Shown: positions 4,804 to 52,155, counted from the first letter of the stretch. The stretch is 53,624 nt of DNA from a virus (IMGVR_UViG_3300035018_000016:1-53624), one strand, 5' to 3'. Numbers and translations: made by a program. Notes: generated by a model not told the origin, from the letters alone.

Positions 4804-6119
4804 GCCGTCTTCTTCTCCGCCGCCGGCGCGCCGATCGGCAGCTGGTCGACTACGGCGCGGCGCACGTCGGGCACGTCGTGGGCATAGGCCATGTAGCTCT
4901 CGACCGTGAGCCAGCCCGCCTGGTCCATGGCCACGCGCGCCGGCGCCTTCATGGCGTGCAGCGTCGTGGCCAGCAGGTGGCGGAACCAGTGCTGGGTGAT
5001 CTGGCGCATGAGGCGGATATCGGCGTGGGCCTGGCCGATGGTCTGTCGCGCCTGGTCGACCAGGCCCTGGCGGCGCAGCTCGAGCGCGGCTTCAAGCGCC
5101 TGGCGCCGGCGAACGCCGGTCGCCCGGACCTTGGCGTTGTTGAAGGCGGTGCGGTTGTGCCCGCTCAGATCGTTGTCGGTCTTGTACGGCTTGCCGGCCT
5201 TGGTCAGGAACAGCGGCCCCTCGCGGTCCCACAACCGGCCGCGGCGCTTGATGTACTGGCGCAGCGCCTCGGCCGCGTTCGGATGCAGCGACGCGGTCAC
5301 GGTCTCGCCGGTCTTGGTCGACCGGAACGTGATCTGCTCGCGGCCGAGCGCCAGCATGGCGTCGGCCAGGCGCGTGCGCAGCACGGCCGAGACGCGCTGC
5401 CCGGTGCTCCATTCGACCCAGAGCTGCGGCTTCAGGTGCCAGCCGGCCTGGTCGACGAGCAGCTGCACGAGCTCGGGCCGCCAGTCGGCGACGTGCCGGC
5501 GCTGGCGGTGCTTGGGCTTGCGGGCGGCTGCGTCGCGCTCGAAGTGCGGCATGGTCTTGTCGCCGATCCAGCGCCGCGGCTTGGCGCGGCACCAGTTCAG
5601 GAACGACATGAGCCCGTTCAGGTAGCGCTCGCGGGTCGAGGCGGCCGCGCCGGCGACGGCGGCCTCGGCCAGCGAGACCCATTCCTCGGCGCCGATCGCG
5701 CCCAGCTTGCGGATCTTGAAACGGCGCGCGATCGCCTGGGTCATCGAGACTTCGCGCCAGCTGGGCTTGCGGCCGTGCTTGCGCGTGCGCTTCAGGTACC
5801 GTTCGATGGCGATGGAAACGGCAACACTCGGCTGGACCCCGTGGATGATCTCTTGCCGGGCTTCGAGCGACCAGGCGTCCCGGAGCGCTTCGGCGTCGGG
5901 CAAGCATTCGGCGTTCGCCGGAAGGCCAGTACCCTTTCTAAGGCGGCGTGAGCGTCGCGCTCCGTCGAGGGTTGCGGCGCGGACAGTGCCGACGACGTGC
6001 CAGAACCCGTCTCTGGCGACGATCTGGAGGCCCGGAGACGCCTTACGCGGGCGCTGGCCCGATCGGCATCCTCGGCCGCGATCGCCGCGCCCAGGGCCCT
6101 GTATTCGTTCTCCGACCAT
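4800..6119 (-). CDS. int: Tyrosine recombinase / phage integrase (start uncertain)
   Basis: Catalytic set TGQRVS (R), HWFRH (HxxR), AGW and YMAY (Y); lies near the tRNA att. Confidence 0.88.
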   Translation of the reverse strand: MVGERIQGPGRGDRGRGCRSGQRPRKASPGLQIVARDGFWHVVGTVRAATLDGARRSRRLRKGTGLPANAECLPDAEALRDAWSLEARQEIIHGVQPSVAVSIAIERYLKRTRKHGRKPSWREVSMTQAIARRFKIRKLGAIGAEEWVSLAEAAVAGAAASTRERYLNGLMSFLNWCRAKPRRWIGDKTMPHFERDAAARKPKHRQRRHVADWRPELVQLLVDQAGWHLKPQLWVEWSTGQRVSAVLRTRLADAMLALGREQITFRSTKTGETVTASLHPNAAEALRQYIKRRGRLWDREGPLFLTKAGKPYKTDNDLSGHNRTAFNNAKVRATGVRRRQALEAALELRRQGLVDQARQTIGQAHADIRLMRQITQHWFRHLLATTLHAMKAPARVAMDQAGWLTVESYMAYAHDVPDVRRAVVDQLPIGAPAAEKKTA

Positions 6120-6295
6120 CTCTTCGATCCGCCGATGTGGTGATGGTGCTGCAGCCGCTGCAGATGCGTGGCCCGCCGCCCATCCTCCGTCAACCGAGAT
6201 TGCAGCCACCGGGAGGACTTGCCAAGCCGCGCGGCGACAACCGCCAGCGGTTGGTGGTCGGGATCGACCTGTGCAAGCACGGTGCTGGCAGTCAC
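5792..6295 (-). CDS. Putative excisionase-like DNA-binding protein overlapping the int 5' end
   Basis: GTG overlaps the upstream stop; N-terminal HTH-like LAVVAARLGKSSRWLQ..IGGSKRWSE; directly upstream of int. Confidence 0.5.
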   Translation of the reverse strand: MTASTVLAQVDPDHQPLAVVAARLGKSSRWLQSRLTEDGRRATHLQRLQHHHHIGGSKRWSENEYRALGAAIAAEDADRASARVRRLRASRSSPETGSGTSSALSAPQPSTERDAHAALERVLAFRRTPNACPTPKRSGTPGRSKPGKRSSTGSSRVLPFPSPSNGT

Positions 6296-6486
6296 GGCGC
6301 CAAACCCGCCGCGACCTGGGCGGCCGCCTCCTCGAGGCGGGCGTGCAGATGGGGATAGGTCTCCTCGAGTCGCACCAAGTAGCGCGCATTGTCTGTGCGC
6401 CACTGGTCGATCTCAGTCCGGCGGCTGGCGAAGCCCAACGTCCGGATCGCAACGTCGGTCCACAGGGTGGCGTTGACGTCGGTCAT
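6292..6486 (-). CDS. Hypothetical phage protein
   Basis: 64 aa; coupled to both neighbours by overlapping start/stop codons. Confidence 0.6.
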   Translation of the reverse strand: MTDVNATLWTDVAIRTLGFASRRTEIDQWRTDNARYLVRLEETYPHLHARLEEAAAQVAAGLAP

Positions 6487-6917
6487 AGCAGACGCGCCTG
6501 TTCAGGCGGGACCGCGACGGCCAGGGTGTGATCCCAATCGAAGAAGGACTGCCGCCCCTTTGCGAGGGGTGGATCGGCGAAGACGCGAGGCTCCTCGAGA
6601 CGCCAGGCGTAGCGGCCGGGTGCCCAATTGCCGCAAAGCTGTTCAATGGCGTCGACGTCATAAGCCTCCGTGCTCTTGCACTCGACCAGATCGACGATGC
6701 CCAGCATGCGGCCGCGCGGTAGTTCGGCGCGCCAGTTTTGCCCGAAGGTATCGCAGCACAGCTCGACAAGCAGATCGTCGATCGGCGGGCAGGGGCGTTG
6801 TGCGGCGTGAATCGCCAGGGGGCCGCGATAGAAGGTGGGCCAGTGGCGTGTCTCGAACTTCTTCAAGCGCGCGAAGATCAGCGAGCCCCACGGCTGCCAG
6901 AGAGAAATGGCCCTCAT
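6483..6917 (-). CDS. ASCH domain protein
   Basis: MRAISLWQPWGSLI..KKFETRHW..YRGPLAIHAA and KGRQSFF, the ASCH signature. Confidence 0.85.
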   Translation of the reverse strand: MRAISLWQPWGSLIFARLKKFETRHWPTFYRGPLAIHAAQRPCPPIDDLLVELCCDTFGQNWRAELPRGRMLGIVDLVECKSTEAYDVDAIEQLCGNWAPGRYAWRLEEPRVFADPPLAKGRQSFFDWDHTLAVAVPPEQARLL

Positions 6918-6956
6918 GTCGATCGGCCCCACGGCGAACGCCGTTCGCTATGGCCA

Positions 6957-8929: not shown

Positions 8930-9477
8930 GCCGCACCTGCCTGGTCGTCGGCGCCGGCGCGCTCCGGCAGCCAGTGGGGCGGCGCGTCCAGCGGCACGCC
9001 GAGGGTGATCTGGCGGATGGTCCGCAGCCGCTCGTCGAGGGCGCCGCGCAGTTCGGCGCCGGCCGGCGGCGCATGGCCGGTGAGGGCGTCGATCACCTGC
9101 TGGAAATGGGCCAACAGCGGGCCGAGTTCGGGCATGTCGCCCACGATCTGCGCCAGCGCGACAAGGTGGCGCTCCCCGTCGTGCAGCCGGTCGAGCGCCA
9201 GGCTGTAGAGGTTGGCGTCGACCGCCTCGCGCGTCCGGCTGTGGGCGCGCGGGAACAGGAACAGGCCCTGCTCGAACAGCCCGGCCACCAGGGCCGTGGC
9301 GAACGCCGTTCGCCACTCGGCCGCGGTGCCCGACGTCGGCGCCACGGCCAGTGCCTGGTCGATCGCCTCTGCCAGCGCGGGCGGCACCGGCACGCTCTCG
9401 CCGGCGGCCATGACGATCTCGGCCGGCAGGGTGCGCAAGGGGCGGGGCGCCGGCGCATCGGAAGGCGCCGGGCTCAT
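8926..9477 (-). CDS. Hypothetical phage protein
   Basis: 183 aa, coupled within the leftward operon. Confidence 0.65.
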   Translation of the reverse strand: MSPAPSDAPAPRPLRTLPAEIVMAAGESVPVPPALAEAIDQALAVAPTSGTAAEWRTAFATALVAGLFEQGLFLFPRAHSRTREAVDANLYSLALDRLHDGERHLVALAQIVGDMPELGPLLAHFQQVIDALTGHAPPAGAELRGALDERLRTIRQITLGVPLDAPPHWLPERAGADDQAGAA

Positions 9478-9722
9478 ATCGTCGTCCCCAGCCGCTTCAC
9501 GCCCGACAGCTCGAGCGCGGCGCGGTAGTGGGTGTCGATCTCGATCTGGCTGAAGCCGCCGCCCAGCAGCTCTTCATGCGTGATCGAGCCGCCGCCCGTG
9601 ACGCGGCGCGTGACCAGGTCGGCCATGCGCTTGCGGATGCTGCGCCCTGACTCCTTCCAGGGCGCGCCGTACAGCATCGACGACCAGCTGCGCGCCGGTG
9701 CCGGCGGGGCGGCGGCCGTCAT
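9474..9722 (-). CDS. Hypothetical phage protein
   Basis: 82 aa; ATGA overlap with the ParB gene stop. Confidence 0.6.
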   Translation of the reverse strand: MTAAAPPAPARSWSSMLYGAPWKESGRSIRKRMADLVTRRVTGGGSITHEELLGGGFSQIEIDTHYRAALELSGVKRLGTTI

Positions 9723-11467
9723 GCGGCCTCCGCAACTTCGGCGTCGGTGCCGGCGTCGTGGTCGCTCGCCTCGGCCGGCCCTCCAACCTCATCGGCAACC
9801 GGCTCGGGCACGAAACGCGCTGGGATCTCCACGCCCAGCTCGGCCGCGATAGCACGGTGCAGCCCGTCCGCCTTGCCGAAGGCCGGAACGTGCAAGACCT
9901 CGGACATGAAGCGGCTGATCAGGCCGTCAATGGCCGCGTCGTCCAGGGCGCGAAGGGCGGACCACAGCTTGTCCTCTGCTCCGACTTCGGGATCGTAGCG
10001 GTCGAGGTAGAAGCCATCGCCGCCCAAGAACTGCCCAAGCTGCTCGGCTTGGTCTCCGAGGTGCGGTCGGGGATCGACGTTGATCTCAAGATCGGCGCCG
10101 CCCAGGTTGCCGAGAAAGGCATAGACCACGAGGCGTCGAGCTAGGTCCGGCCGGCCGGGAAGGCCTTGGGCCAATGCAGCAGTCACGGCGTCGGCTTGCC
10201 GCTCTTCCTTCGAGGCACGCTCAGGCCGGTCACGCTCGACCCGTTGCGGCTTGGCCTTGTCGATTTTGGCGTCCCACACTTCGCGCGGAACGACGTTTTT
10301 CGCGGTCCTGATCTTGTTCCGCTCGAGCCAAACGACCGCGGTACAGTCGGACTCCGTAATTCCTTTCTTCCGCTTCTTCGCCTCGGCCTTGTTCTCCCAC
10401 CACGAGTTGATCGAGCCGCCATCGTCTGCCCAGACGAAGTTGCCAAGGGTCTGTGTGTTGACCCGTTGCGCGGTCGGCCAGGTCTTTTTCAGACGCTCGA
10501 CCCGGGCGTCGGCGGCGTCCGATTGAAGGCGGTTGAACTTGGCCTTGTCGGCGAACCACTTCTTGTCGCCTTCGACCAGGTATTCGCCATCGTAGAGATC
10601 GATCTTGAAGGCCGCGGTCGAAACCGGGATGGCCTTGTCCTGCAGCTTGCGGCGCACCGTATCGGCGTCACGCAGTGCCCAAGGGTCCTTCGCCATGATC
10701 TTCTGCAGCTTGCTCGGGGCACCGGCGAGGATGCGGGCCACTTCGACCTTCAATTCGCCGGCGGCGAGCTTCTGCTGCAGGTCGGCGGCGAGATTGCGGG
10801 CGATGTTGATGCGCTGCGCGACGAATCGATCGCTCTTGCCGATCAGCTTGCCGATAGCGGTAGCAGTCCAGTGCGTCTTGTTCTCGTCCTGTAGAGCGGC
10901 GAAGGCCTGCGCTTCCTCGAGCGGCGGAATGTCGACGCGCTGCAGGTTTTCGATAATCTGCAAGGCGCGGGCGCTGGCGGTGGTCTCGGCGGTGCGGACG
11001 AGGCAAAGCGCGGTGTCGGCGTTGTTCAGCTTGAGCGCGCGAAGCCGCCGGTGCCCGGCGATCAGCTCGAACCGGCCCTTGGTCAGGGAGTTCATCACCA
11101 CGAGCGGCTGCAGCAGCCCGCTCTCCTGGATGCTGGCAGCGAGGCCGGCCAGTTCGTCTTTGTCGTAGTCTTTCCGCGGATTGTGCGGGGAGGGGTCGAT
11201 GAGGTCGATCGGGATGGGGCGAACGGCGTTCGGCCCGTCGCCTTCCGACTGGCCGGCGAGCAGCTGCTCGATCGTAACGCCCATCGCGGCGGCCAGGCGG
11301 CCGGCCGATTCCATGTTGAGCGAGGCCTTGTCGCCCTTGGTGATCTTGCCGAGGTCGCTGTGGTCGATCTCGGTCCGGCGCCCCAGCTCGCGCAGACTGA
11401 CGTCGGGATGAGCCGTCAGCCAGCCGACCACGGCTTTCTGCAACGGTGTCTTGAACGTATTGGCCAT
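9719..11467 (-). CDS. XRE-HTH / ParB(Spo0J/KorB)-family fusion protein
   Basis: N-terminal XRE HTH (SLRELGRRTEIDHSDLGKI); ParB N-domain (PSPHNPRK, GLLQPLVV, IAGHRRLRA, IIENLQR); central HTH (TATAIGKLIGKSDRFVAQR); long C-terminal region. Confidence 0.88.
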   Translation of the reverse strand: MANTFKTPLQKAVVGWLTAHPDVSLRELGRRTEIDHSDLGKITKGDKASLNMESAGRLAAAMGVTIEQLLAGQSEGDGPNAVRPIPIDLIDPSPHNPRKDYDKDELAGLAASIQESGLLQPLVVMNSLTKGRFELIAGHRRLRALKLNNADTALCLVRTAETTASARALQIIENLQRVDIPPLEEAQAFAALQDENKTHWTATAIGKLIGKSDRFVAQRINIARNLAADLQQKLAAGELKVEVARILAGAPSKLQKIMAKDPWALRDADTVRRKLQDKAIPVSTAAFKIDLYDGEYLVEGDKKWFADKAKFNRLQSDAADARVERLKKTWPTAQRVNTQTLGNFVWADDGGSINSWWENKAEAKKRKKGITESDCTAVVWLERNKIRTAKNVVPREVWDAKIDKAKPQRVERDRPERASKEERQADAVTAALAQGLPGRPDLARRLVVYAFLGNLGGADLEINVDPRPHLGDQAEQLGQFLGGDGFYLDRYDPEVGAEDKLWSALRALDDAAIDGLISRFMSEVLHVPAFGKADGLHRAIAAELGVEIPARFVPEPVADEVGGPAEASDHDAGTDAEVAEAA

Positions 11468-11482
11468 GTCATTCGTCCCCTG

Positions 11483-11800
11483 TCATTCGTCGTTGGGCGG
11501 CACGGCGTGGTGGGCGAACAGGAGGGCGCGCGGCCGTGCCGCCGGCGCCTCCTGGGGAATCGGGGTAGGCGCGGGCAGCGCGCCGTCGGCATTCGCGAGC
11601 GGTAGCTTCGCGATCTCGGCCTTGATTTCGGCCAGGTGCGTGCCGAGGCGGCGCAGCTCGTGTGCCCAGGCCGGCCGGTGGCCGCCGGTGCGCCGGCCGT
11701 TGGGATCGAGATAGGCGCAGACGACGTGGCCGTCGGCCTGCCGCGCGACCAGGGCGACGTCGGTGCCGCCCAGCGTGTAGGGGCGCGGCCGGTCGGTCAT
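11483..11800 (-). CDS. Hypothetical phage protein
   Basis: MTDRPRPYTLGG..; ATG overlaps the stop of the upstream small ORF. Confidence 0.6.
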   Translation of the reverse strand: MTDRPRPYTLGGTDVALVARQADGHVVCAYLDPNGRRTGGHRPAWAHELRRLGTHLAEIKAEIAKLPLANADGALPAPTPIPQEAPAARPRALLFAHHAVPPNDE

Positions 11801-11871
11801 TTCGCGGCGGCCGAGAAGATGCCGCCCAGGACGAACAGGATGGCGGCGACGACGATGATGCCTTCGATCAT
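11797..11871 (-). CDS. 24-aa single-TM peptide (not in the ORF track)
   Basis: MIEGIIVVAAILFVLGGIFSAAAK*; GGAG upstream; TGA overlaps the next ATG. Confidence 0.55.
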   Translation of the reverse strand: MIEGIIVVAAILFVLGGIFSAAAK

Positions 11872-11873
11872 GG

Positions 11874-12062
11874 TCAGGCTCCCACGGATTTGCGCAGCGC
11901 GGCGACGTGATCGGCCGCCTCTTCAAAACGACGCAGCACGTCAGGCAAGAGGGCAGTGCGGCGCTGTTGCAGCGCCACGTCGATCAGATCGTTCATGCGA
12001 TCCAGCGAGGTCTGCAGCATGCGAAGGCGGGCGGCTGAGCCGTCGGAAAGAGGGCCGCTCAT
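11874..12062 (-). CDS. Hypothetical phage protein
   Basis: MSGPLSDGS.., 62 aa, ATGA-coupled. Confidence 0.55.
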   Translation of the reverse strand: MSGPLSDGSAARLRMLQTSLDRMNDLIDVALQQRRTALLPDVLRRFEEAADHVAALRKSVGA

Positions 12063-12498: not shown

Positions 12499-13010
12499 CG
12501 GCCACTCCCGAGGACGGCGGCGGCGCGCTGGGCGATCGTGCCCAACTCGCCGACGAAGTTGCAGGCTTCCATGCCCCGGTCGACGCGGCCGGTCTCCAGG
12601 GCCTCGTCGACACGATCGGCCGACAGGCGCAAGGCCCGGGCGAGATCGCGCAGGGCTTCGCGTTCCTTGGCCGTCAGCGGCTCGATCGAGGCGATCGGCA
12701 GTCCGGTGGGCCGCATGGTCGCGCCCTGGGTGGCTTCAACCGCGTCGAGTAGCTCGATCATCTGCTCGGCGTCGGTGAGGGTGGGCGCCGTGCCCTGCTT
12801 GTTGGGAGCCCCGTGGCCGTACAGCGTCCAGTGCCAGCGGTAGTCGTCGAGGGAGCGGAACACATCGCCGACCGGCCCGGCGTTGTTGCGGTAAATCCAG
12901 AAGCGCACGCCGGCGGCCTGCATGCCCGGATCGGCGTCGCGGAAGGTGAACACCAGCCGGGGCGAACGGCGTTCGCCCGGGGCGGGCGGGAGTGTGCTGG
13001 CGTCTGGCAT
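12495..13010 (-). CDS. Hypothetical phage protein
   Basis: 171 aa; GGAGG upstream. Confidence 0.65.
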   Translation of the reverse strand: MPDASTLPPAPGERRSPRLVFTFRDADPGMQAAGVRFWIYRNNAGPVGDVFRSLDDYRWHWTLYGHGAPNKQGTAPTLTDAEQMIELLDAVEATQGATMRPTGLPIASIEPLTAKEREALRDLARALRLSADRVDEALETGRVDRGMEACNFVGELGTIAQRAAAVLGSGR

Positions 13011-13408: not shown

Positions 13409-14011
13409 CTAGGCCTCCCGCGCCGGAAGCGTGTCGGCTTTGGCGAGCGCGGCATCGACCATGGCGCTGAGTGTCGTGACGGGGGCCTCGGCGGCGTCGG
13501 GCGCCGCGGTGAGGATCAAGGTCTGATCCTTGATCGCGCCGGACTTCAATCCTTTGGCGACGATGCGTACAACTTCGTACAGTTCGTCGCCGGCCTGGCT
13601 CTTGGCCCAGGAGATATCGGTCAGGCGCTGCTGCTCGGCCTCGCGCGCCTCTTTCGCCGCGTGCTCGGCGCGTGCCCTGGCGATCAGGCCGTCGCGTTCG
13701 ATCGTCTCGAACAGCCTGGCGACCAGAGGGACGTTGGCCTTGGCGGTCGGGCTGCAGTACGCGCTCGTGAACAAGGCGGCATGGCCGGCGCGCGGTGTTT
13801 GCTTGTGCAGGGTGCCGCCGTCCAGCGTCTTGCCGTCCTCGCGCAGCCACAGGAAATAGAGCGCCCCGTCGAGGTGGAACGAGGCCACGAAGGAAGTGCC
13901 GTGGACCCTGACCGCGATCCCGGTCATCCGATCGACCGGCCGCGACCGGCCGCGAACGGCGTTCGGGGAGGGGAGGCGAGGCGAGGGGGTGTCGGCGGCT
14001 GCGGTCTGCAT
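13409..14011 (-). CDS. Hypothetical protein, first gene of the leftward early operon
   Basis: ATG 14011 with GGAG RBS, just downstream of the OL-like operators. Confidence 0.65.
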   Translation of the reverse strand: MQTAAADTPSPRLPSPNAVRGRSRPVDRMTGIAVRVHGTSFVASFHLDGALYFLWLREDGKTLDGGTLHKQTPRAGHAALFTSAYCSPTAKANVPLVARLFETIERDGLIARARAEHAAKEAREAEQQRLTDISWAKSQAGDELYEVVRIVAKGLKSGAIKDQTLILTAAPDAAEAPVTTLSAMVDAALAKADTLPAREA

Positions 14012-14044: not shown

Positions 14045-14121
14045 GTTACCAAAAACGCAACATCGGGGCAAGACGAATGTTGCCGAAAGCGCAACCTTTG
14101 AAATTGAGGTTGCGCTTCGGC
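14045..14121. promoter_or_regulatory. OL-like operators and leftward promoter region
   Basis: 17-bp imperfect palindromes GTTACCAAAAACGCAAC (14045-14061) and GTTGCCGAAAGCGCAAC (14079-14095), plus a degenerate third copy from 14109; they match the cI-cro intergenic sites. Confidence 0.75.
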
Positions 14122-15656: not shown

Positions 15657-15664
15657 GCTTGATT

Positions 15665-15747
15665 GTTGCCGGACTGGCAACGACGTTCCATCCACCGGAA
15701 TGGCAACCCTCTGTTGACGATTGTTGCGCTTTTGGTAACATAGCGGC
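15665..15747. promoter_or_regulatory. OR-like operators and rightward promoter
   Basis: GTTGCCGGACTGGCAAC (15665-15681), degenerate copy 15691-15707, GTTGCGCTTTTGGTAAC (15723-15739); -35 TTGACG (15714) and -10 TAACAT (15736). Confidence 0.78.
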
Positions 15748-16062
15748 ATGACCTCCCTCGCCGCATGGCTGAAAGACCAGGACATCAGCGACGCCGAATT
15801 TGGCGGCCGCATCGGCTGCGACCGCGGCTCGGTGGGCCGCTATGCCCGTGGCGAGCGCTTTCCCACCCCGGCGACCCTGGTCCGTATCCGCGAGGAGACC
15901 GGGGGCCTGGTGAACGCCGACGATATGCTGCGGACCTGGGAGGCCAAGAATCCGGGCCAAGCGCCGGAGGGCGAGGGGGCTGTGGACGAAAGCGGGGCGC
16001 CGAACGCCGTTCGTGACGCCAGCGCAGGGGAGTTGGTGGCCCGGCCGGGAGAGGCGGCGTGA
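15748..16062 (+). CDS. cro: Cro-like HTH regulator
   Basis: MTSLAAWL..ISDAEFGGRIGCDRGSVGRYARGERFP..TGGLVNADD; divergent from cI. Confidence 0.85.
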   Translation: MTSLAAWLKDQDISDAEFGGRIGCDRGSVGRYARGERFPTPATLVRIREETGGLVNADDMLRTWEAKNPGQAPEGEGAVDESGAPNAVRDASAGELVARPGEAA

Positions 16063-18748: not shown

Positions 18749-19845
18749 GAACGGACCGCCTCGCCGTCAGCTTCGACCGCGACCGCTGGACCAAGCGCAA
18801 GGCCGCCGTGCTGGAGCGGGTCGGGCTCTACGATGCGATCGTGAGCGTCGTCGCGCTGAAGAGCGTCGCGAAGCATGAATACAGGGGCGTCTGCCCGTTG
18901 CCGACGTGCGGTGCGTCGTCGTTCACGCTGAACACCAAGAAGGGCCTGTTCAAGTGCTTCGGCTGCGATGCCAGCGGCACCAATGCCATCGACTTCGTGA
19001 TGGCGCGGCAGAAGCTGGAGTTCACCGAAGCGATCGAGCTGCTGGAATCCGAGAACGGCCTCTCGCGCCTGGCCGCGAGCCCGGCGCCGGCGCCGCGGCC
19101 CCAACGCTTGGACCCGGCGACGGGTCTAAGCGTGCCCGTGCCGCAGGCCGACGACGTGCAGCGCGATCAGCGGGTGCAGCGCCTCTGGGCCCGGGCCGTC
19201 CACGACCCGGCCATCGACCAGTACCTGCGTGGCCGCGCCCTGGTGCCCTGTGCCGAGTACGGCTTCGGCGATCCCGCCGTCAACGGCGGCTGGCCGGCCG
19301 CCCTGAAGTTCGTGGCGGCCTGTTATCACGGCATCGAGCAGCGTGACTTCCCCGCGATGATCGTGCCCTACCGCAAGCCGGACGGCACGGTGGTGGCCGT
19401 CCATCGCACCTACCTGAAGCGCGTCACCGGCGGCTGGGAGAAGGCCGGCACCCGCAAGGACAAGATGCACCTCGGCCCCCGCGCGGGCGCGCTGCTCATG
19501 TTGTGCGAGCCGGCGGAAGCGATGACGGCCGGCGAAGGCCTCGAGACGTCGATGTCCAACATGCAGCTGTGGCGCCGCGCCGGCTTTGCCTACGGCTCGG
19601 CCGACGCCATGGCCAAGGTCGAGCCGCCGTTCCTCTGCAGCGACCTGCTGATCGGCGCCGACTGGAACAAGCTCCGCCGCACCGGCGAACGCGCCGCCTG
19701 GGCCGCGAAGAAGGCCTTCAGCACGGGCGGCCGGCACATCGGGATCATGGTCCCGAACATGCGCCACCTCGACAAGGCGGATTTCAACGACGTGCTGAAA
19801 GAGCAACGGGCGGCCGAACGGCGTTCGGCAGGGGAGGCGGCATGA
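18745..19845 (+). CDS. DNA primase (CHC2-type zinc finger + Toprim)
   Basis: GVCPLPTC..FKCFGCDASG; AVHRTYL; GEGLET; IGAD; DFND. Confidence 0.85.
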   Translation: MRTDRLAVSFDRDRWTKRKAAVLERVGLYDAIVSVVALKSVAKHEYRGVCPLPTCGASSFTLNTKKGLFKCFGCDASGTNAIDFVMARQKLEFTEAIELLESENGLSRLAASPAPAPRPQRLDPATGLSVPVPQADDVQRDQRVQRLWARAVHDPAIDQYLRGRALVPCAEYGFGDPAVNGGWPAALKFVAACYHGIEQRDFPAMIVPYRKPDGTVVAVHRTYLKRVTGGWEKAGTRKDKMHLGPRAGALLMLCEPAEAMTAGEGLETSMSNMQLWRRAGFAYGSADAMAKVEPPFLCSDLLIGADWNKLRRTGERAAWAAKKAFSTGGRHIGIMVPNMRHLDKADFNDVLKEQRAAERRSAGEAA

Positions 19846-22017: not shown

Positions 22018-22136
22018 GGGCGCGATCGTGGCGGCCGAATGCGACCGCCACGCGGCGCTCCCGCGGCGGCGCCGGGGTGAAGTGTTGCGTTCGGTGAAGA
22101 GGCGAACGGCGTTCGGCGTAGCGTAGAGCGGGGACA

Positions 22137-29236: not shown

Positions 29237-29908
29237 ATGGCGTCATCCGGCCTGCTCGGCGTGTCCGCGCTCGCGCGCGAGCTCGGCGTCGGCAAGGGCA
29301 CCGTGAGCAAGCAAGCCGCGGCCGGGAAAATTCCGGTCGCGGAGCGCGATACCCAGGGCAACCCCCTGTTCGATCTCGCCGCGGTGAAGGCCGCGCGTGG
29401 CGACAATCTCAATCCGCTGATGCGCCGTCAGCCGATGACGGCCGGCGACGCCGACCAGGACAGCAGCGCTGCGCCCGACGGCGCTGCCCCGGCCGAACGC
29501 CGTTCACCGGATCGCGCGCCGTCCGGCCTGGTCCAGCAGCAGCAGCTCGAGAAGCAGCTGAAGAACCGGCGCCTTCTGCGCCAGATCGCGGTCGACGAGG
29601 GCCTCGTCGTGCTGCGGTCGGTCGTCGACGACGACCAGACCACCTTCGCCCGCCGCACCCGCGACGGCGTCACCGGCCAGATGGCCGACAAGGCGAGCGC
29701 CCTCTACGCCTTCGTCGGCGAACGGCCGCGCACCGAGGCCGAGTTCCGCGTCTGGCTGGACGAGCACACCGGCCAGGCCTTCGACGAGGTGTCCAGGCTG
29801 ATCGCCGCGGAAGACGAGGACGAGTTCGGCGATGCAGAGCCCGGCCAGTCCGACCCCGAGTCCGACCAGTTCGAGTCTGGCGAACCTGACGCCGAGGCAG
29901 CTCCGTAA
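29237..29908 (+). CDS. Terminase small subunit (Nu1-like)
   Basis: N-terminal wHTH GVSALARELGVGKGTVSK, coiled coil, overlaps the large-subunit gene. Confidence 0.75.
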   Translation: MASSGLLGVSALARELGVGKGTVSKQAAAGKIPVAERDTQGNPLFDLAAVKAARGDNLNPLMRRQPMTAGDADQDSSAAPDGAAPAERRSPDRAPSGLVQQQQLEKQLKNRRLLRQIAVDEGLVVLRSVVDDDQTTFARRTRDGVTGQMADKASALYAFVGERPRTEAEFRVWLDEHTGQAFDEVSRLIAAEDEDEFGDAEPGQSDPESDQFESGEPDAEAAP

Positions 29909-32163: not shown

Positions 32164-33768
32164 ATGCCGCCTGCCCAGCTGGTCGCCGCCGACGGCACGA
32201 CGCCGCTTCGTGCCATGGCCGCCGTGCCCTATCGCGCCGGCGATCGCCTCAGCCAGGAGCTGGCCGGCTGGGACCCGATGCTGCAGTCGCCCGATGCGGC
32301 GATGTGGGGTTTGCGCGACGATGTCGTGGCCCGCGGCACCGATCTCGGGCGCAACAACGGCTTCGCCGCCGGCGCGCGCCAGAGCCAGATCGACAACGTC
32401 ATCGGCGCCAACTGGATGCTGGCGGTCGAGCCCAACTGGCATGCGCTCGGCCTTTCCTCGATGTCGGACGACGAGCGCGACGCCTGGGAGGAGCATGTCG
32501 AGGAGGCCTTCGACGAATATGCCAACGACCCGGGCAACTGGATCGACGCCGGCCGGCGCGTCTCCTTCATCGGGCAGCTGCGCCAGGACTTCGCCGCCTG
32601 GTTCGATTCGGGCGAATTCCTGGCGGTCTCCCATTGGCTGCCGGATCGTCTGGGCCCCGGCCGCGCCCGCTATGCCACGGCCTGGCAGAACATCAGCACC
32701 CACAGGCTGAGCAACCCGGGCGGCGCCGCCGACACGGCGACGCTGCGCAACGGTGTCCAGCTCGGCCCGCAGGGCGACCCGCTAGGCTACCACATACGAC
32801 GCGCGCACCCCTACGATCCGTGGCTCGGCGCCGAGTCCTACGTCTGGGAGTATTTCGAGCGCGAGGACAATTTCGGCCGGCCGAACGTGCTGCACGGCTT
32901 CGTCGTCGAGGGCGACGGCATGACCCGTGGTGTTTCGCCCATGGCATCGGTCATCGAGGCCTTCCGGCTGCACGACGTCGCCGATCGGGCGACGGCCAAG
33001 GCGGTGCTGATCAACAGCATCATCGCCGCCGTGATCGAGACCCAGAGCGGTCTCGACAAGGAAGCGCTCGAAACCATGTTCGCCGGCCCCGTTGGGGCGG
33101 GTGGCAAGGAATCGCTGCAGATCGGCGGCCCGCCGATGCGGCTCGACCGCACCATCGTTCCGAAGATGCCCCCGGGCACGACGCTGAAATTCACCAATCC
33201 GGTCCAGCCGGCCGGCGCCGCCTACCAGCAGTTCACCGACACGCTCCTGGGACGCGAGGCCGCCGGCCTCGGCATGAGCCGCGAGGAGTTGAGCCGCGAC
33301 TACTCGAAGACGAACTACTCCAGTGCCCGCGCCTCGCTGCTCGGCGCCTGGAAGGCCATCACCGGCCGCAGCGCCTTCCTCGAGCGCACCTCGGCCGCGC
33401 CGCGCTACGGCAGCTGGTTCGAGGAGGCGGTCGACCGCGGCATCGTCGAGCTGCCGTCGATGCGGAAGAACGGCGGCACGCCGGGCTTCTACGAACGCCG
33501 TTCGGCCTGGCTGCGCCACGGCTGGATCGGCCCGGGTCGCGGCCACATCGATCCGGTGAAGGAACGGCAGGCCTACCAGATCGGCCGCGACACCTACACC
33601 GACACGCTGCAGTCGGCGAACGCCGAGCAGGGGCGGGACTGGCGCAAGGTCGCGCGGCAGTCGGCACGCGAGGCGCGCGTGCTGGGCCGTCTCAATCTGC
33701 CCGTCGCCACGACCGCCTCGCTGATGGGCGTCAAGGGGACGAGCGACAACGAAAGGCCAGCCGCATGA
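32164..33768 (+). CDS. Portal protein, lambda family
   Basis: DLGRNNGFA, RGVSP, DYSKTNYSSARASL, WIGPGRGHIDPVKE. Confidence 0.93.
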   Translation: MPPAQLVAADGTTPLRAMAAVPYRAGDRLSQELAGWDPMLQSPDAAMWGLRDDVVARGTDLGRNNGFAAGARQSQIDNVIGANWMLAVEPNWHALGLSSMSDDERDAWEEHVEEAFDEYANDPGNWIDAGRRVSFIGQLRQDFAAWFDSGEFLAVSHWLPDRLGPGRARYATAWQNISTHRLSNPGGAADTATLRNGVQLGPQGDPLGYHIRRAHPYDPWLGAESYVWEYFEREDNFGRPNVLHGFVVEGDGMTRGVSPMASVIEAFRLHDVADRATAKAVLINSIIAAVIETQSGLDKEALETMFAGPVGAGGKESLQIGGPPMRLDRTIVPKMPPGTTLKFTNPVQPAGAAYQQFTDTLLGREAAGLGMSREELSRDYSKTNYSSARASLLGAWKAITGRSAFLERTSAAPRYGSWFEEAVDRGIVELPSMRKNGGTPGFYERRSAWLRHGWIGPGRGHIDPVKERQAYQIGRDTYTDTLQSANAEQGRDWRKVARQSAREARVLGRLNLPVATTASLMGVKGTSDNERPAA

Positions 33769-36795: not shown

Positions 36796-36848
36796 GCCCG
36801 CCGCCGGGCCGCCGGCGCCGCGTATTTGGCGTCGGCGGCTTGGCGGGC
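36796..36848 (+). terminator. GC-rich hairpin after the capsid gene (terminator or mRNA stabiliser)
   Basis: GCCGCCGGCGCC / GGCGTCGGCGGC stem with outer GCCCGCC/GGCGGGC; no clear U-tract. Confidence 0.35.
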
Positions 36849-36871
36849 GAACGCCGTTCGCCTCTCATGCG

Positions 36872-40540: not shown

Positions 40541-40909
40541 ATGACCGAACCGACAGAAGCCGAACGCCGTTCGCCTGACGGGGAACTGGACCAGCGCGAC
40601 GATGCCTTCACCATTCCGGAGGAGATCGTCGTTCCGCTGAAGAAGCCGCTGAAGAAGGTGGCCAGCGACGAGACCCTGACGCAGCTCACCTTCCGGCCGC
40701 CGACCGTCGGCGAGATGAAGAAGATCGGGCAGCGGCTGAAGAGCCAGGGACAGGAAGCCGCCGGTATCCTGATGCTGTCGCTGCTCAGCAACGACAAGCT
40801 GACCGACCCCGACGTGGAGCGGCTGAACTTCATCGACGCCCAGATCTGTGCGGAGAAGCTGCAGCCTTTTTTGGAATTGTCGGCGCCTACGAAGAAGCCG
40901 ACGGACTGA
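40541..40909 (+). CDS. Tail assembly chaperone (GpE-like)
   Basis: VPLKKPL..LTFRPPTVGEM; GGAGG RBS; ends near a slippery site. Confidence 0.8.
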   Translation: MTEPTEAERRSPDGELDQRDDAFTIPEEIVVPLKKPLKKVASDETLTQLTFRPPTVGEMKKIGQRLKSQGQEAAGILMLSLLSNDKLTDPDVERLNFIDAQICAEKLQPFLELSAPTKKPTD

Positions 40910-42904: not shown

Positions 42905-44197
42905 ATGGCTTCTCGGTTCGATCCCCTGACCGCGCTTGAGGGCGCCTTCCTCGGCTTCCCGTTCAAGCTGGCGGGGGAACGCGGCGAGGGTGGCATTCGC
43001 GGCCCGGTCCACGAGTATCCCGACCGGGACCTGCCGTTCTTCGAGAAGCTGGGCCGCAGCGCCCGGCGCTTCGACCTGTCCGTCTACTTCGTCGGTCCCT
43101 CGGCCGACCTGCAGGCCGCGCTGTTCGACAAGCTGCTGTGGAAGGGCACGGCGGGCCCGCTGATTCTCCCCGGCCTGCGCCGCGAGACGATGCTGGCGCA
43201 GAAGTGGAACTACCAGAAAGAAGCCGGCCGGGCGCAGTGGGTCCGGTTCGACCTGCATTTCGTCGAGGTCGGGCGCAACACCTATCCCGCGCCGTCGACG
43301 AGCTGGCCGCACGCCCTGCTCGATGCCGCCCTGTCGGCCCGAACGGCGTTCGGCGACGCGCTCGGAGAGGCGCTGTCGCTGGTCGGCCTCGACGGCGGCC
43401 CGCTCGGCCAGGAGGCGGTCGAGGATCTGATCGGCCGCGCCCAGGCCCTCGGCACGGTGCTGAACGTGGCGGCGCAGCTCGCCGCCGGCGATGCGCCCTC
43501 GACGGCGCTCGCCTCGGCGGCGCTGCTGACCCTAGGCTACACCCGTTCGCTCGGCCCGTCTTCGTTCGATGGCTGGCTCGCGACGGCGACCTTCGCGGCG
43601 GCGACCGTGCAGCTGCTCGGCGGCTGGGCCGACGCCCTGGCCGGCCCGTCGCCGGACCTTCTGTCGCGCTCCAGGGCAATCGAGTCCATGTTCGTGGTCT
43701 ACGGCGAGGGCGCCTCCGATTCCTGGTACGCCCCCGAGGCCTTGACCCCTTTGGAGCTGGCCGGGATTTCCAACCAGGGCGCACTGTCCTCGGGCATCCG
43801 CCGCGTGGCCCTGGCCGAGATCGCGCGGCAGGCGGCGTCGCTCGACTTCGCGAGCTACGACGATGCGGCCCTGCTGCGCGGCCGCCTGGCCGATGCCTTC
43901 GACGACGAGATCAACCTGGCCGGCAACGCAACCGCACCGGGCGGTCGATCGGAGAGGGCGCGCGTGGCGTTGCAGCATCTGCGGGCCGCGACCTTGCAGG
44001 CGATCTCTGACGCCGGCGCCGACAAGGCCCGTCTCGTGCCCTATGCCGTGCCGCGCCCGCGCCCGGCGCTGGCGATGGCGCAGCTCTTCTACGGCGGCGA
44101 TGCCGACGTGACCGGCCGTGCTGGGGAACTGGTCGCGCGCACCGGCGCCATTCATCCTGCGTTCCTGCCCGCTAAGGGCGAACGCCTCTCGAAATAA
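42905..44197 (+). CDS. DNA circularisation protein (Mu gpN-like)
   Basis: AFLGFPF..VHEYPDRD..EKLGRSAR..FVEVG; C-terminal YGGDA..R..ELVART..HPAF. Confidence 0.85.
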   Translation: MASRFDPLTALEGAFLGFPFKLAGERGEGGIRGPVHEYPDRDLPFFEKLGRSARRFDLSVYFVGPSADLQAALFDKLLWKGTAGPLILPGLRRETMLAQKWNYQKEAGRAQWVRFDLHFVEVGRNTYPAPSTSWPHALLDAALSARTAFGDALGEALSLVGLDGGPLGQEAVEDLIGRAQALGTVLNVAAQLAAGDAPSTALASAALLTLGYTRSLGPSSFDGWLATATFAAATVQLLGGWADALAGPSPDLLSRSRAIESMFVVYGEGASDSWYAPEALTPLELAGISNQGALSSGIRRVALAEIARQAASLDFASYDDAALLRGRLADAFDDEINLAGNATAPGGRSERARVALQHLRAATLQAISDAGADKARLVPYAVPRPRPALAMAQLFYGGDADVTGRAGELVARTGAIHPAFLPAKGERLSK

Positions 44198-46492: not shown

Positions 46493-46527
46493 GCCGCGAA
46501 TGTAATCGAACGATTACAGATTGTCAA
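46493..46527 (-). promoter_or_regulatory. Toxin-antitoxin promoter with palindromic operator
   Basis: TTGACA-17 bp-TACATT-6 bp-ATG on the minus strand; TGTAATCG-AA-CGATTACA (46501-46518) overlaps the spacer and -10. Confidence 0.8.
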
Positions 46528-46546
46528 GCGGGAACGGCGGGGCGCG

Positions 46547-47026
46547 ATGCGGTTGATTTACGACAGGACGACCGGTTTCTTCGACATCGGCCTGACCGGG
46601 GCCGGCGGTCTCGATCCCGGCATCGGCAACGCCGGCGCGCTGGAGGCCGCGGTCTGGGTCTCGCTCTTCACCGACCTCCTGGCCGACCCGGCCGACATGA
46701 CGCCGGAGCTGGGCGGCGACCGGCGCGGCTGGTGGGGCGACAGCGGCCGGGCGCCGGATGCCAGCATGGGCAGCCTGATCTGGCTGCACAGGCGGGAGAA
46801 GAAGAGCGAGACCGTCCGGCTCAAAGTCGAGAACGCGGCGCGCGAGGCGCTGCAATGGCTGATCGACGACGGGATCGCTTCGGACGTGACGGTCGAGGCT
46901 TTCTTCCCGGCCCAAGGTCAAGCAGGAGGCCCGCGCGACGCGCTCGCCCTGGTCGTGACCCTGACCGAGCCGAACGGCGTTCGCCGGGACTGGAAAGTCG
47001 ATCTCCTGTGGTCCGGGGTGTTTTAG
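46547..47026 (+). CDS. Baseplate protein (Mu gp46-like)
   Basis: AVWVSLFTD..RRGWWGD..GSLIWL..REK..AREALQWLIDDG. Confidence 0.9.
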   Translation: MRLIYDRTTGFFDIGLTGAGGLDPGIGNAGALEAAVWVSLFTDLLADPADMTPELGGDRRGWWGDSGRAPDASMGSLIWLHRREKKSETVRLKVENAAREALQWLIDDGIASDVTVEAFFPAQGQAGGPRDALALVVTLTEPNGVRRDWKVDLLWSGVF

Positions 47027-50112: not shown

Positions 50113-51438
50113 ATGACGCTGAGCAAGCTTCTGCGAACGGCGTTCGCCGCCGTCTCCCTGGCCCTGGTGTCGTCGGTCGCGTTCGGCCAGGACGGTCCCG
50201 GTGGCGGCATTTCCAATCCGCGCCCGCTCACGGCGCAGACGGTCACCGGCGCGCTGGGCTATTCACCGGCGCGATCGGGCATCAACTACGACATCACGGC
50301 GCTGCCTGGACTCTCTACGCCGCTGCTGCCGACGGCGCTGCCGCTGCCGACCGCCTCGACTCTTGGCGGCGTCAAGTCTCTGGTGGCGTTGCCGAACCGC
50401 TTCCTGACCTCGATCACCACGGCGGGCCAGCCGGTCGCCGCCCAGCCAGCGGCGTCGGACATCACCGGCCTCGCGCCCTCGGCCACGACCGACACGACGA
50501 ACGCCTCCAACATCGGCAGCGGGTCGCTGTCTCTGCTGCGCCTCGCGTCGATCGCCGACCAGCGGCTGCTGGCAAATATCAGCGGTGGGTCAGGGACGCC
50601 TGCCGCGACCACCTTGACCGCGCTGCTCGACAACATACTCGGCAGCGCCCAGGGCAGCGTGATCTATCGCGGCGCGTCTAACTGGGGCGTTCTTACCCCC
50701 GGCACGGCTGGTCAGTTCTTGCAGACGCAGGGCGCCGGTGCCGACGTGCAATGGGGCGCGCCGGCCGGCAGCGGCAATGTCTCAAACTCCGGCACGCCGA
50801 CCAACGGCCAGGTCGCGGTCTGGACGAACGCCACGACGGTGCAGGGCGTCGATGCTGCGGTTGTCGGCGTCGTGCCCAGCGGCGCGGTGCTGCCCTTCGC
50901 CGGATCGTCGGCGCCGACGGGCTACCTTCTCTGCTACGGCCAAGCGGTCAGCCGAACGACCTATGCCGCATTGTTCACGGCGATCGGCACGACCTACGGC
51001 ACCGGCGACGGCTCGACGACCTTCAACCTCCCAGACCTGCGAGGCCGCGCCGCGTTCGGCGTCGACAACATGGGCGGCTCGGCCGCCAACCGCCTTGGCA
51101 GCAACGCGAGCATCGGCGGCATTTCGGGCACCGCCTCGCTCGGTACTGCGGGCGGCGCGCAAACCCACGTCCAGACGATCGCAGAACTGGCGCCGCACAC
51201 TCATGCCGCTCCCAACGGCATGGTGGGGGGCAGCGACGTCGGCGGCACCGGCGCCTATCTCTCGGCTGGGCTGCCGAATAACGGAACGTCGGGGAGTACC
51301 GGCAGCGGTGCCCCCTTCAACATCACGCCGCCGGCTCTGGTGCTGAACTACATCATCCGTCAGCGCCGCCGGCCGTCGAACGACAACCGGCGACACGTCC
51401 GCCGCTCCGATCGATTCCCGGCACGCCTCGCGGCCTGA
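50113..51438 (+). CDS. Tail-fibre-like protein with phage tail-collar domain and an N-terminal signal-peptide-like sequence
   Basis: Collar motif PSGAVLPFAG..PTGYLLC.GQAVSRTTYAALF.AIGTTYG.GDGSTTFNLPDLRGR; N-terminus MTLSKLLRTAFAAVSLALVSSVAFG-Q. Confidence 0.78.
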   Translation: MTLSKLLRTAFAAVSLALVSSVAFGQDGPGGGISNPRPLTAQTVTGALGYSPARSGINYDITALPGLSTPLLPTALPLPTASTLGGVKSLVALPNRFLTSITTAGQPVAAQPAASDITGLAPSATTDTTNASNIGSGSLSLLRLASIADQRLLANISGGSGTPAATTLTALLDNILGSAQGSVIYRGASNWGVLTPGTAGQFLQTQGAGADVQWGAPAGSGNVSNSGTPTNGQVAVWTNATTVQGVDAAVVGVVPSGAVLPFAGSSAPTGYLLCYGQAVSRTTYAALFTAIGTTYGTGDGSTTFNLPDLRGRAAFGVDNMGGSAANRLGSNASIGGISGTASLGTAGGAQTHVQTIAELAPHTHAAPNGMVGGSDVGGTGAYLSAGLPNNGTSGSTGSGAPFNITPPALVLNYIIRQRRRPSNDNRRHVRRSDRFPARLAA

Positions 51439-51475
51439 TCTCGACCACCAACCGCCGTCACTCACGGGAGGCCCC

Positions 51476-51826
51476 ATGTCGCTCGATCCCGAAACCGTGC
51501 TCGGCATCAAGGCCGCGGTGCTCAAGGCCGGCGCCGCCGGCACCCTGGTCGGCATCATCTGGCGACGCCAGTACCGCCTGGCCGAGGCCTTCTCGGCCGC
51601 GATCGCCGGACTCGGCTGCTCGATCTATGTCGGGCCGGCGGTCGTGGGCTGGAGCGGCGTCACGCACGAGGACGTGCACAACGGCATCATCTTCGCCTGC
51701 GGCCTGCTCGGCATGTACATCGTCGACCTGGCGTCGCTCTACGGGCCGCGCCTGGTGCGGGCGATCGCGGGCAAGTTCCTGCCGCCGCTGCCACCCGACG
51801 AGACCAAGCCGGGAGGCGGCGCATGA
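51476..51826 (+). CDS. Putative holin
   Basis: 116 aa, about 3 TM helices, GGAGG RBS, start of lysis cassette. Confidence 0.65.
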   Translation: MSLDPETVLGIKAAVLKAGAAGTLVGIIWRRQYRLAEAFSAAIAGLGCSIYVGPAVVGWSGVTHEDVHNGIIFACGLLGMYIVDLASLYGPRLVRAIAGKFLPPLPPDETKPGGGA

Positions 51827-52155
51827 ACGACCTCGCCGTCGTCGCCCTCTGCGGCATGGTCGCCGGCGGTGCCGCCTTCCTGCTCGGCATCGCCCAGCTC
51901 ACCTGCGAGCACGCCAGATCGCCGATGCCGCAACGCCTCACGACCGGCGTGCTGGCCGGCGTGGCGGCATGGACCGGACTCGATTGCTGGGACGTCCTGT
52001 CGGGACTCGACGCCACCGTCGATGCCAAGGCCGTCGTCTTCAGCCTCGCCCTCGCCCTGTCGTGGGGCTACCGCCGCGCCCGCGGCCTGGTCACCGAACG
52101 GCCCGGGCCGAACGCCGTTCGGCCCGGGCCTTGCGCACGAAAGAAGACCCCATGA
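51823..52155 (+). CDS. Membrane protein (holin/antiholin-like)
   Basis: Three hydrophobic segments and basic tail; coupled to both neighbours. Confidence 0.55.
   Translation: MNDLAVVALCGMVAGGAAFLLGIAQLTCEHARSPMPQRLTTGVLAGVAAWTGLDCWDVLSGLDATVDAKAVVFSLALALSWGYRRARGLVTERPGPNAVRPGPCARKKTP
52100..52130. repeat. 31-bp palindrome centred on the 13-bp motif
   Basis: GGCCCGGGCCGAACG-C-CGTTCGGCCCGGGCC. Confidence 0.9.

Follow-up and report, generated by a model that had tools for sequence, protein, structure and literature searches.

Which protein reads a short palindrome that is repeated in every module of a temperate phage genome? The question is posed by IMGVR_UViG_3300035018_000016, a viral stretch of 53,624 bases analysed at its full length (the window), which is a temperate phage of Reyranella, a soil and water bacterium. 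The repeated element is the 13-bp palindrome CGAACGSCGTTCG, and the proposed reader is a long orphan ParB of 582 residues that the phage itself encodes (9719..11467, minus strand). Judging from the number and spacing of the sites, their distribution among host-family genomes and the proteins shared by the elements that bear them, we consider it probable that the array provides genome-wide loading sites for this ParB, acting as a clamp.

An evenly spaced palindrome array

The palindrome CGAACGSCGTTCG occurred in 17 exact copies in the window, and none of 100 dinucleotide-preserving shuffles reached that number (mean 0.01, maximum 1). With one mismatch allowed, 19 sites were found against 0.46 expected, the two mismatched ones being those at 5110 and 29494. 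An unbiased count returned the same motif both as the commonest 13-mer of the window and as its commonest palindrome with 6-bp arms, and the reversed pattern, used as a control, had 0 copies. The 19 sites span ~47 kb and fall in every phage module. Exact and one-mismatch scans found no copy to the left of 5110 or to the right of 52121, leaving both flanks free.

The gaps between neighbouring sites ranged from 990 to 4797 bp (coefficient of variation 0.37), and none of 20,000 random layouts with the same outer limits was as even. Spacing was also even in relatives (G017, p = 2e-4; G122, p = 0.004) and, at p < 0.03, in six of ten fetched IMG/VR records. A sequence-only reading of the stretch had described 17 exact and two one-mismatch copies, dispersed about 1.0–4.8 kb apart and absent from the host flank. 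Every copy was located where that reading had put it, the opposite flank proved equally free, and the dispersal was more even than random.

Distribution of the motif in host-family genomes

The motif would be of little interest if it were a repeat of the host chromosome, a possibility that the sequence-only reading had itself named. Five Reyranella-type genomes reached via the host flank had 0, 9, 0, 2 and 1 copies, and in the genome with nine (G002) eight lay within 38 kb around a ParB homologue. Among 130 genomes of the family, 63 had at least one copy. By a hand tally, 117 of the 130 carried 0–3 copies each (74 in total, 0.63 per genome), and the reversed-pattern control gave 86 copies over all 130 (0.66 per genome), so that the motif is no commoner in the chromosomes than chance predicts. 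The remaining 13 genomes had 5–17 copies, clustered in prophage-like stretches, and the density check thus spoke against a host-wide repeat.

ParB homologues followed the clusters. At E ≤ 1e-30 a homologue was present in nine of the 130 genomes (36–62% identity), and all nine had 6–17 copies on the contig or contigs bearing ParB, over ~40–50 kb. Four further genomes had 5–10 copies and no ParB at this threshold (G061, G080, G020 and G101), the first two of which are prophage pieces cut by contig ends.

The other two contained islands of different kinds. At G020:C1 ~8868-15320, five exact copies lie in a low-GC (guanine-cytosine) island (0.60), parts of which are masked as N, and a short ParB-like protein of another kind is encoded there (a 320-residue frame with GERRWR, E 2.4e-4 to the window ParB). 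At G101:C5 ~7644-15794, four exact copies lie in an island of ~8 kb that encodes an integrase along with a large terminase, prohead protease and HK97-type capsid protein and could be a prophage remnant or a capsid-forming satellite that bears the tag of its helper.

Proteins shared by array-bearing elements

A scan of IMG/VR for the 15-mer GCGAACGSCGTTCGC returned at least 119 stretches. From the matches listed, 24 records were picked, favouring long contigs and multiple hits; 20 of them had 3–21 copies of the 13-mer and four had one copy, with 0 copies of the reversed control in all 24. A ParB homologue at E ≤ 1e-8 was present in 13 of the 20 multi-copy records and in none of the four single-copy records.

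We then clustered the proteins of 21 elements all-against-all: the window, seven Reyranella prophages, the alphaproteobacterial genome G353 from another family, and 12 IMG/VR records selected by the motif. The long ParB was the sole protein cluster present in 21 of 21 elements, followed by primase (17/21), terminase (16/21), portal (15/21) and helicase (15/21). A family hidden Markov model (HMM) of the ParB_N and helix-turn-helix (HTH) domains found one long open reading frame (ORF) per element (E 1e-98 to 4e-7), and all 12 elements chosen solely by the motif had a long ParB (E 3e-50 to 4e-7). The weakest cases were G532, G542 and G543, the first of which was also recognized by hhalign at 90.6%. 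The sequence-only reading had named the protein at 9719-11467 as its best candidate, and the clustering singled out the same protein. The same 13-mer persists while ParB identity falls to ~25–40%. The helicase-like protein at 22137-24050 was considered as a reader and set aside, being present in only 15 of the 21 elements.

For the reverse direction, 80 IMG/VR loci were chosen by ParB similarity. Within 20 kb, CGAACG-S-CGTTCG reached at least three copies in seven of the eight best ParB-selected matches. More distant phage ParBs accompany different dispersed palindromes, and the reversed control gave 0 in all virus records. Counting the palindrome of the window as class A, these are class B (CGCACG-S-CGTGCG, 13 copies in 32.8 kb), class C (CGAATG-S-CATTCG, five copies in 26.4 kb), class D (TAGCCA-W-TGGCTA, four copies in 17.4 kb) and class E (GCAGACGTCTGC, with 5, 3, 4 and 4 copies in four records). 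The IMG/VR records bearing such other-palindrome arrays are G552, G553, G554 and G555–G558. In G353, all five CGCACG-N-CGTGCG copies of the genome lie within 31 kb, next to and inside a long parB (G353:C12:131307-162074), with two copies of the reversed control in the whole genome. Most other ParB-selected loci had no array with exact 6-bp arms within the 20 kb examined, so such arrays belong to some phage ParB lineages and not to all.

The recognition helices of the ParBs differ between the classes. Classes A–C, with related half-sites, keep an Arg that D and E lack. Co-variation between site and HTH, which the sequence-only reading had suggested looking for, was thus found at the level of motif classes but not at that of single residues. 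A residue rule drawn from Reyranella proteins, with Gln before the invariant Arg for CGAACG and Thr for CGCACG, was dropped after the wider IMG/VR set showed the same motif with Q, L, M, S or E at this position.

The long orphan ParB

The protein at 9719..11467(-) begins with a weak XRE-type HTH (residues 22-70), followed by a ParB_N nucleotide-binding fold (residues 82-176, 10940..11224(-)) with the motifs GHRRLRA (GxRRxRA) and IIENLQR, an HTH_ParB domain (residues 179-261, 10685..10933(-)) with the recognition helix GKSDRFVAQR, an alpha/beta middle part (~280-400) without family assignment, and a helical C-terminal region (residues 418-558, 9794..10216(-)) predicted to form a homodimer. Pfam matches were PF02195 (E 1.8e-19) and PF17762 (E 6.8e-8), and the NCBI ParB domain model TIGR00180 was passed with 110.6 bits (cut-off 58.45). 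Among 16 aligned homologues neither the RR of GxRRxRA nor the ENLQR motif varies, the recognition helix is conserved, and the N-terminal XRE-type domain is strikingly conserved in most of them. An acidic tail ending in AEAA closes most of the Reyranella homologues (9719-9760(-) in the window).

In profile comparisons, the ParB_N and HTH part matched Spo0J, ParB and Noc at E 1e-28 to 1e-37 (Spo0J 2.8e-37) and KorB at 1.6e-15. An AlphaFold2 (AF2) model (mean predicted local distance difference test score, pLDDT, 80.6; predicted template-modelling score, pTM, 0.45) was compared with the PDB by Foldseek, and it superposed on the Caulobacter ParB–parS structure 6t1f (TM score 0.75), KorB (0.69) and Noc (0.67). 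By fold, motifs and HTH, the protein is assigned to the ParB/Spo0J family of nucleotide-dependent clamps. The sequence-only reading had likened it to KorB; the KorB match (E 1e-15) is much weaker than that to the chromosomal ParB/Spo0J/Noc proteins (E 1e-37), Pfam and NCBIfam scans returned no KorB-specific family, and this likeness was given up.

The C-terminal half (residues 275-582) matched no named family; the Foldseek matches of the model in the PDB covered the ParB part only, and the Atlas yielded other long ParBs and clusters without a name. When residues 275-582 were modelled as two copies, they were predicted to pair via 418-558 with a score of 0.82 (best of three controls 0.00), a mark attained by 20 of 30 solved homodimers and one of 23 monomers. 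The runs agreed in at least 69% of contacts, with partner pLDDT of at least 74. The model supports dimerization through the C-terminal region.

Judged on the neighbours scanned (7687-8664, 8926-9477 and 11483-11926), among which no ParA or ATPase family was seen, this ParB is not part of a ParABS partition set. The N-terminus of the long ParBs is an XRE domain or short, and has no ParA-binding motif. A KorA-like partner was not identified either, the small genes on both sides of parB giving no family match. The prophages of G017, G054 and G116, whose ParBs have no XRE domain, still hold 17, 12 and 9 exact copies, which leaves the ParB HTH, and not the XRE part, as the candidate reader common to all. 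A site within parB occurs in the window, in four Reyranella relatives and in nine of 14 IMG/VR records (in the parB reading frame). XRE-less parB genes have no internal site because the site lies in the XRE–ParB linker.

Selection on the DNA and shape of the site

Gene calls made from the GC content at the third codon position placed 16 of the 19 sites inside genes and three between them. Within genes, each of the three frames is used, the sites encoding RTAF, (P/A)N(A/G)VR or ERRS, and whether the motif centre is C or G follows from the codon required there.

From left to right, the one-mismatch copy CGAACGCCGGTCG (5110..5122) lies inside the integrase gene, and the orthologous position is exact in three of three relatives. 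Site 6935..6947 is intergenic by the gene calls, and 9300..9312 is read as RTAF in gene 8926-9477(-), where two of four relatives are exact and one has one mismatch. Site 11220..11232 lies in parB itself, in the XRE–ParB linker (residue 81, PNAVR), and is exact in three of six mapped relatives; G028 is a fourth relative with a linker site in parB, at residue 82. Sites 12963..12975 and 13953..13965 are found near the N-terminus of gene 12495-13010(-) and at the left edge of the immunity region, respectively. The C-terminal tail of the Cro-like gene 15748-16062(+) contains 16001..16013 (residue 87/104), and the primase C-terminus contains 19815..19827 (residue 536/543), exact in three of six relatives despite diverged flanks. 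Site 22103..22115, between the nuclease-like and helicase genes, is a probable fourth intergenic site if gene 21502-22263 starts at an internal Met.

In the right half, 26900..26912 lies in gene 26557-28092(+), and the one-mismatch copy CGAACGCCGTTCA (29494..29506) in gene 29237-29908(+), where it is exact at the orthologous place in three of three relatives. The large terminase C-terminus carries 31864..31876 (residue 680/698; one exact and two one-mismatch sites in three relatives) and the portal gene carries 33492..33504 (exact in none of seven relatives, one mismatch in one). Two sites are intergenic, 36848..36860 downstream of the major capsid gene and 40561..40573 in the tail module. Both 43340..43352, in gene 42875-44197(+) with proteins 46–61% identical, and 46971..46983, near the C-terminus of gene 46247-47026(+), are exact in three of three relatives. 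Site 50134..50146 is at the N-terminus of gene 50113-51438(+), and the final site ahead of the right flank, 52109..52121, is in gene 51627-52868(+).

When window sites were mapped onto orthologous genes of relatives in 39 comparisons, the motif at the homologous place was exact in 21 and had one mismatch in four. In those 25 comparisons the 15 + 15 flanking bases were only 54% identical, and the proteins were 37–81% identical. The sequence-only reading had argued for selection on the DNA from the different reading frames and from sites placed in gene tails and linkers (Cro, primase, terminase and the XRE–ParB linker). The frames and the positions held, and the retention of the exact 13-mer between diverged flanks indicates likewise that the array is under DNA-level selection. 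The portal site at 33492, exact in no relative, was therefore gained or lost recently, and since some sites are not common to relatives, sites turn over while the density stays. Sites are also borne by the structural modules of the relatives, mosaic as these are and often without any relation to the corresponding modules of the window.

Among 127 sites with perfect arms in relatives, the centre was G or C in 124 and A or T in three, and only 16 one-mismatch arm variants were seen. In a larger relative set of 205 sites, the base 5' of each half-site was G or C in 393 of 410 half-sites, so that the flanks extend the dyad, as had been noted earlier, by one base per side. The predicted recognition unit is (G/C)CGAACG-S-CGTTCG(G/C), 15 bp. 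These flanking G/C bases were complementary in only 125 of the 205 sites, with about half expected, a result more in keeping with half-sites that are read independently than with an extended stem. A restriction site, a nicking motif and a mobile mini-repeat were also considered and rejected by argument, on the grounds that only 13–15 bp are kept and the flanks diverge; for the nicking motif, a palindromic nick site would in addition break both strands.

Proposed mechanism and alternative explanations

We infer binding of ParB to the sites, clamp formation and spreading from the motifs and the co-occurrence. In the mechanism we propose, ParB would form a dimer held together by its C-terminal domain, and its ParB-type HTH would read the two (G/C)CGAACG half-sites. 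The protein would then close into a nucleotide-dependent clamp, like relatives with intact GxRRxRA and ENLQR motifs, and the closed clamp would slide onto neighbouring DNA. With sites every 1–5 kb over 47 kb, the whole phage chromosome could become coated with ParB, and the host chromosome, without sites, would stay uncoated.

Several features fit this proposal. A palindrome with two independently constrained half-sites fits a dimeric HTH protein, and intact nucleotide-binding motifs together with a dimerizing C-terminus fit a clamp. The even spacing, 2.6–6 kb in all modules, would suit a need for coverage rather than the control of individual promoters. That the motif stays constant while ParB diverges may be explained by the 10–20 sites that a change of specificity would have to alter at once. 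Chromosomal parS is widely conserved, and multi-site arrays by themselves freeze specificity.

Other observations weigh against this proposal. The link between ParB and array is one of co-occurrence. Nine of the 21 clustered elements were chosen via ParB, and the unbiased test is confined to the 12 motif-selected ones. In three more of the 20 multi-copy IMG/VR records, ParB was recognized only by Pfam at or below the cut-off, by hhalign at 90.6% or by the family HMM, and no ParB was seen in G531, G541 and G549 (3–5 copies, 58–77% complete), records that were not taken whole. The clusters of G020 (five sites in 6.5 kb and four in 14 kb) and G101 (four in 5 kb) lie in long contigs that genuinely lack a long ParB. 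The recognition helix varies among phages with an identical motif (RFVAQR, RHVQLR, RWVELR, RDVQEK). G363, a possible second CGCACG array with two of three genome copies near parB, had five copies of the control and was not counted. Finally, the nucleotide site has unusual residues: at residue 96 the family has Asn where the canonical NPxQPR box has Gln, and at residue 139 the window has GHRR where most relatives have GERR and other members G or A. The same Gln and Glu are named as CTP (cytidine triphosphate)-hydrolysis residues of Myxococcus ParB (PMC13229309), and the nucleotide cycle may therefore be slower than, or differ from, that of canonical ParB.

Another phage protein might read the palindrome, with ParB merely travelling along in the early-gene module. 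Small conserved genes (9474-9722 and 11483-11926) flank parB, primase (17/21) and helicase (15/21) are widely shared, and the recognition helix varies despite the identical motif. We regard this as unlikely, since no other cluster reached 21 of 21, neither G130 nor the distant elements have the small genes beside parB, and a CI-like repressor is present in only two of the seven Reyranella relatives that keep the array. Moreover, the structural modules are mosaic and yet all bear sites, and different ParB lineages accompany different palindromes.

The persistence of the 13-mer at ~25–40% ParB identity might instead point to a conserved host factor that binds the site and is recruited or decoyed by the phages. 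GAAC...GTTC resembles the half-sites of the Gram-positive LexA box, but the spacing differs. Such a host regulator would have essentially no sites of its own, the copies in host chromosomes being at chance level (0.63 vs 0.66 per genome), and phages in other hosts carry other palindromes that track the ParB type. Motif constancy is accounted for without a host factor if multi-site arrays alone freeze specificity, as for chromosomal parS, and we find this explanation very unlikely.

ParB might also sit at the sites and direct a DNA-modifying enzyme, the array then being an epigenetic self-mark and not a platform for clamp coating. Phage ParB homologues have been reported to activate thymine dioxygenases (PMC13229309), and the window encodes two more ParB-fold proteins, the one at 25760-26560 being followed by methyltransferase-like genes. 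The dioxygenase-linked ParBs are described in that report as lacking a DNA-binding domain, though (PMC13229309), and the window ParB has one. No dioxygenase family was seen among the subset of window proteins scanned, and the ParB-fold/methyltransferase-like module occurs in only one of 17 related stretches, the motif being kept nonetheless; we hold this alternative to be highly improbable. Least probable of all is a role as hairpins in single-stranded DNA or RNA, serving for example as priming, processing or packaging signals: a 7-bp stem closed by a 3-nt loop is feasible for motif and flanks (~-10 kcal/mol), and primase and helicase are among the most widely shared genes, but the sequence is invariant and does not co-vary, one of three folded sites was no better than shuffles (z = 0.15), and the flanking bases are complementary at little more than the expected rate.

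If the array indeed loads the long ParB, the downstream role could be transcription control (silencing as by KorB, or activation as by BisD or VirB), compaction or compartmentation of replicating phage DNA, or shielding from host nucleases. A bolder and rather doubtful extension is that, in a large group of temperate phages, a ParB coat or condensate formed early in infection on phage DNA only serves as a protein-based identity mark and compartment that organizes replication and packaging and shields phage DNA from host nucleases. The palindrome classes (CGAACG, CGCACG, CGAATG, TAGCCA, GCAGAC) would then be compatibility groups that let pre-tagged mosaic modules swap, and tagged elements without ParB, such as the G101 island, would be satellites that borrow the coat of their helper.

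The prophage around the array

IMG/VR lists the stretch as a provirus. Its left flank codes for a Cache-HAMP adenylate cyclase 88% identical to a protein of Reyranella metagenome-assembled genomes. The phage has a tyrosine integrase (4800-6452), a CI-like S24 repressor (15009-15812), the Cro-like gene (15748-16062(+)) and a CII-like gene in the immunity region, a DnaG-type primase (18214-19845) and a helicase resembling the helicase half of primase-helicases (22137-24050, DUF927-like). The head genes comprise a lambda-type terminase, portal, protease and capsid, and the tail is contractile, with a sheath protein. The term lambdoid, applied to the prophage by the sequence-only reading, suits the head genes and the immunity region but not the tail. 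Megablast against deposited phage genomes found no match for 4000-25000 or 26000-50000, no tRNA was found in the window, and there was no attachment-site repeat of at least 15 bp between the two ends.

Two pairs of 17-bp operator-like sites lie around the CI-like and Cro-like genes. The OL-like pair (14045..14095, copies at ~14045 and ~14077) has the pattern GTTRC-N7-GCAAC, and the OR-like pair (15661..15741, copies at ~15663 and ~15723) lies between the CI-like and Cro-like genes, where a promoter-like site was seen at 15714-15741(+). These four sites are of a separate GTTGC-N7-GCAAC type, bearing out the earlier remark that the 13-bp palindrome is distinct from the 17-bp operators. The parB gene sits in the leftward early block, and the position of this operon beside repressor-type operators suggests repressor control and early expression. 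With the operator-like repeats as our sole basis, we infer that parB acts early after infection or induction. Two ORFs, 13409-14071(-) and 13896-14999(+), overlap head to head in the segment that contains the OL-like operators and site 13953; both have high GC at the third codon position and neither has a family match.

Next to parB, an 82-residue gene (9474..9722(-)), whose start overlaps the parB stop, adjoins parB in most Reyranella relatives, and a small gene directly upstream (11483..11926(-)), with a true start that is probably an internal Met, is kept in most of them; neither had a family match. The product of 21502-22263(-) is staphylococcal-nuclease-like, with an apparent signal peptide after an internal Met (translation judged by eye), and the long upstream extension of this ORF is probably not translated. 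Three window proteins have a ParB fold, and only that of 9719-11467 has a ParB helix-turn-helix. The second is a DUF6551-like protein (20639-21499(+)), of a class reported to bind ATP (PMC12704722). The third is the ParB_N protein at 25760-26560(+), followed by the methyltransferase-like genes 26557-28092(+) and 28316-29227(+), upstream of the terminase.

Comparison with known systems

A phage-wide array of ParB sites is apparently undescribed: no description was found in the literature searched, supplementary tables (including those of PMC12704722) being outside its scope, and the 13-mer string itself was not found in the literature text searched, an 11-mer core of it being present in seven papers. 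A 2025 survey reports that orphan ParBs are common or enriched on prophages and plasmids and leaves their roles open (PMC12704722). The locus described here gives a prophage orphan ParB a concrete target, a genome-wide, evenly spaced array that is kept across many phages sharing almost nothing else, in at least five specificity classes. If binding proves true, this would be the first tailed phage to employ a ParB clamp along the whole of its chromosome. Questions would follow about the discrimination of phage from host DNA, the compatibility of mosaic modules and the possible exploitation of the mark by satellites, and natural orthogonal ParB–site pairs would become available for DNA labelling and synthetic regulation.

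ParB-family clamps serve in partition, nucleoid occlusion (Noc), plasmid silencing (KorB), virulence activation (VirB) and conjugative transfer competence (BisD). By sequence and fold, the nearest relatives of the window ParB are the chromosomal ParB–parS and Noc–NBS systems, with GxRRxRA and ENLQR in common, and Noc uses many sites scattered over the chromosome. Unlike these proteins, the phage protein has an extra C-terminal half of 300 residues and, in many members, an XRE domain; its site is 13–15 bp with an odd centre and is confined to phage DNA, whereas parS is 16 bp.

The KorB operator O_B has a 13-bp, odd-centred geometry and is present at 12 sites on the IncP plasmid RK2. In both systems a ParB-family protein on a mobile element is accompanied by many dispersed copies of one palindrome. 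The sequence-only reading had proposed a clamp system like that of KorB and O_B, and of this the layout stands, with 19 odd-centred palindromes over 47 kb, but the protein is not KorB. KorB is described as a sliding clamp that depends on CTP and has effects at a distance from its operators (PMC11790492). In contrast to KorB, the window sites are mostly intragenic and evenly spaced and are not placed at promoters, the element is an integrating tailed phage, and no KorA-like lock or ParA (IncC) was found among the neighbours scanned.

BisD of ICEclc is reported to be an orphan ParB-like CTP clamp that spreads over at least 50 kb and controls genes of the element (PMC12409273). Its site bisS is described as palindromic, with an odd centre and inside genes, with two functional sites 2 kb apart, and BisD as working with the activator BisC via a C-terminal activation domain (PMC12409273). 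An orphan ParB on an integrated element and odd-centred intragenic palindromes are common to both systems, but the phage arrays have 6–21 sites over the whole genome and ICEclc has two. No BisC-like partner came up in the phage, where no search was directed at one.

Stoperators are asymmetric sites whose orientation follows transcription, and the protein that binds them is the immunity repressor. They occur in tens of 13-bp copies throughout the genome, and their specificity co-varies with the phage protein. The stoperators of Cluster A mycobacteriophages provide a dispersed-site precedent in temperate phages (PMC6550527). The window site differs in being a perfect palindrome, and a CI-like gene is present in only two of the seven array-keeping Reyranella relatives; the array is not a stoperator system.

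A further comparison is with the linear plasmid-prophage N15, which has four dispersed SopB centromere sites and ParA-driven partition. There too, palindromic sites of a ParB-family protein are scattered in a phage genome and not gathered in one centromere. The window phage, by contrast, integrates, has no ParA in the genes scanned, and carries about five times as many sites.

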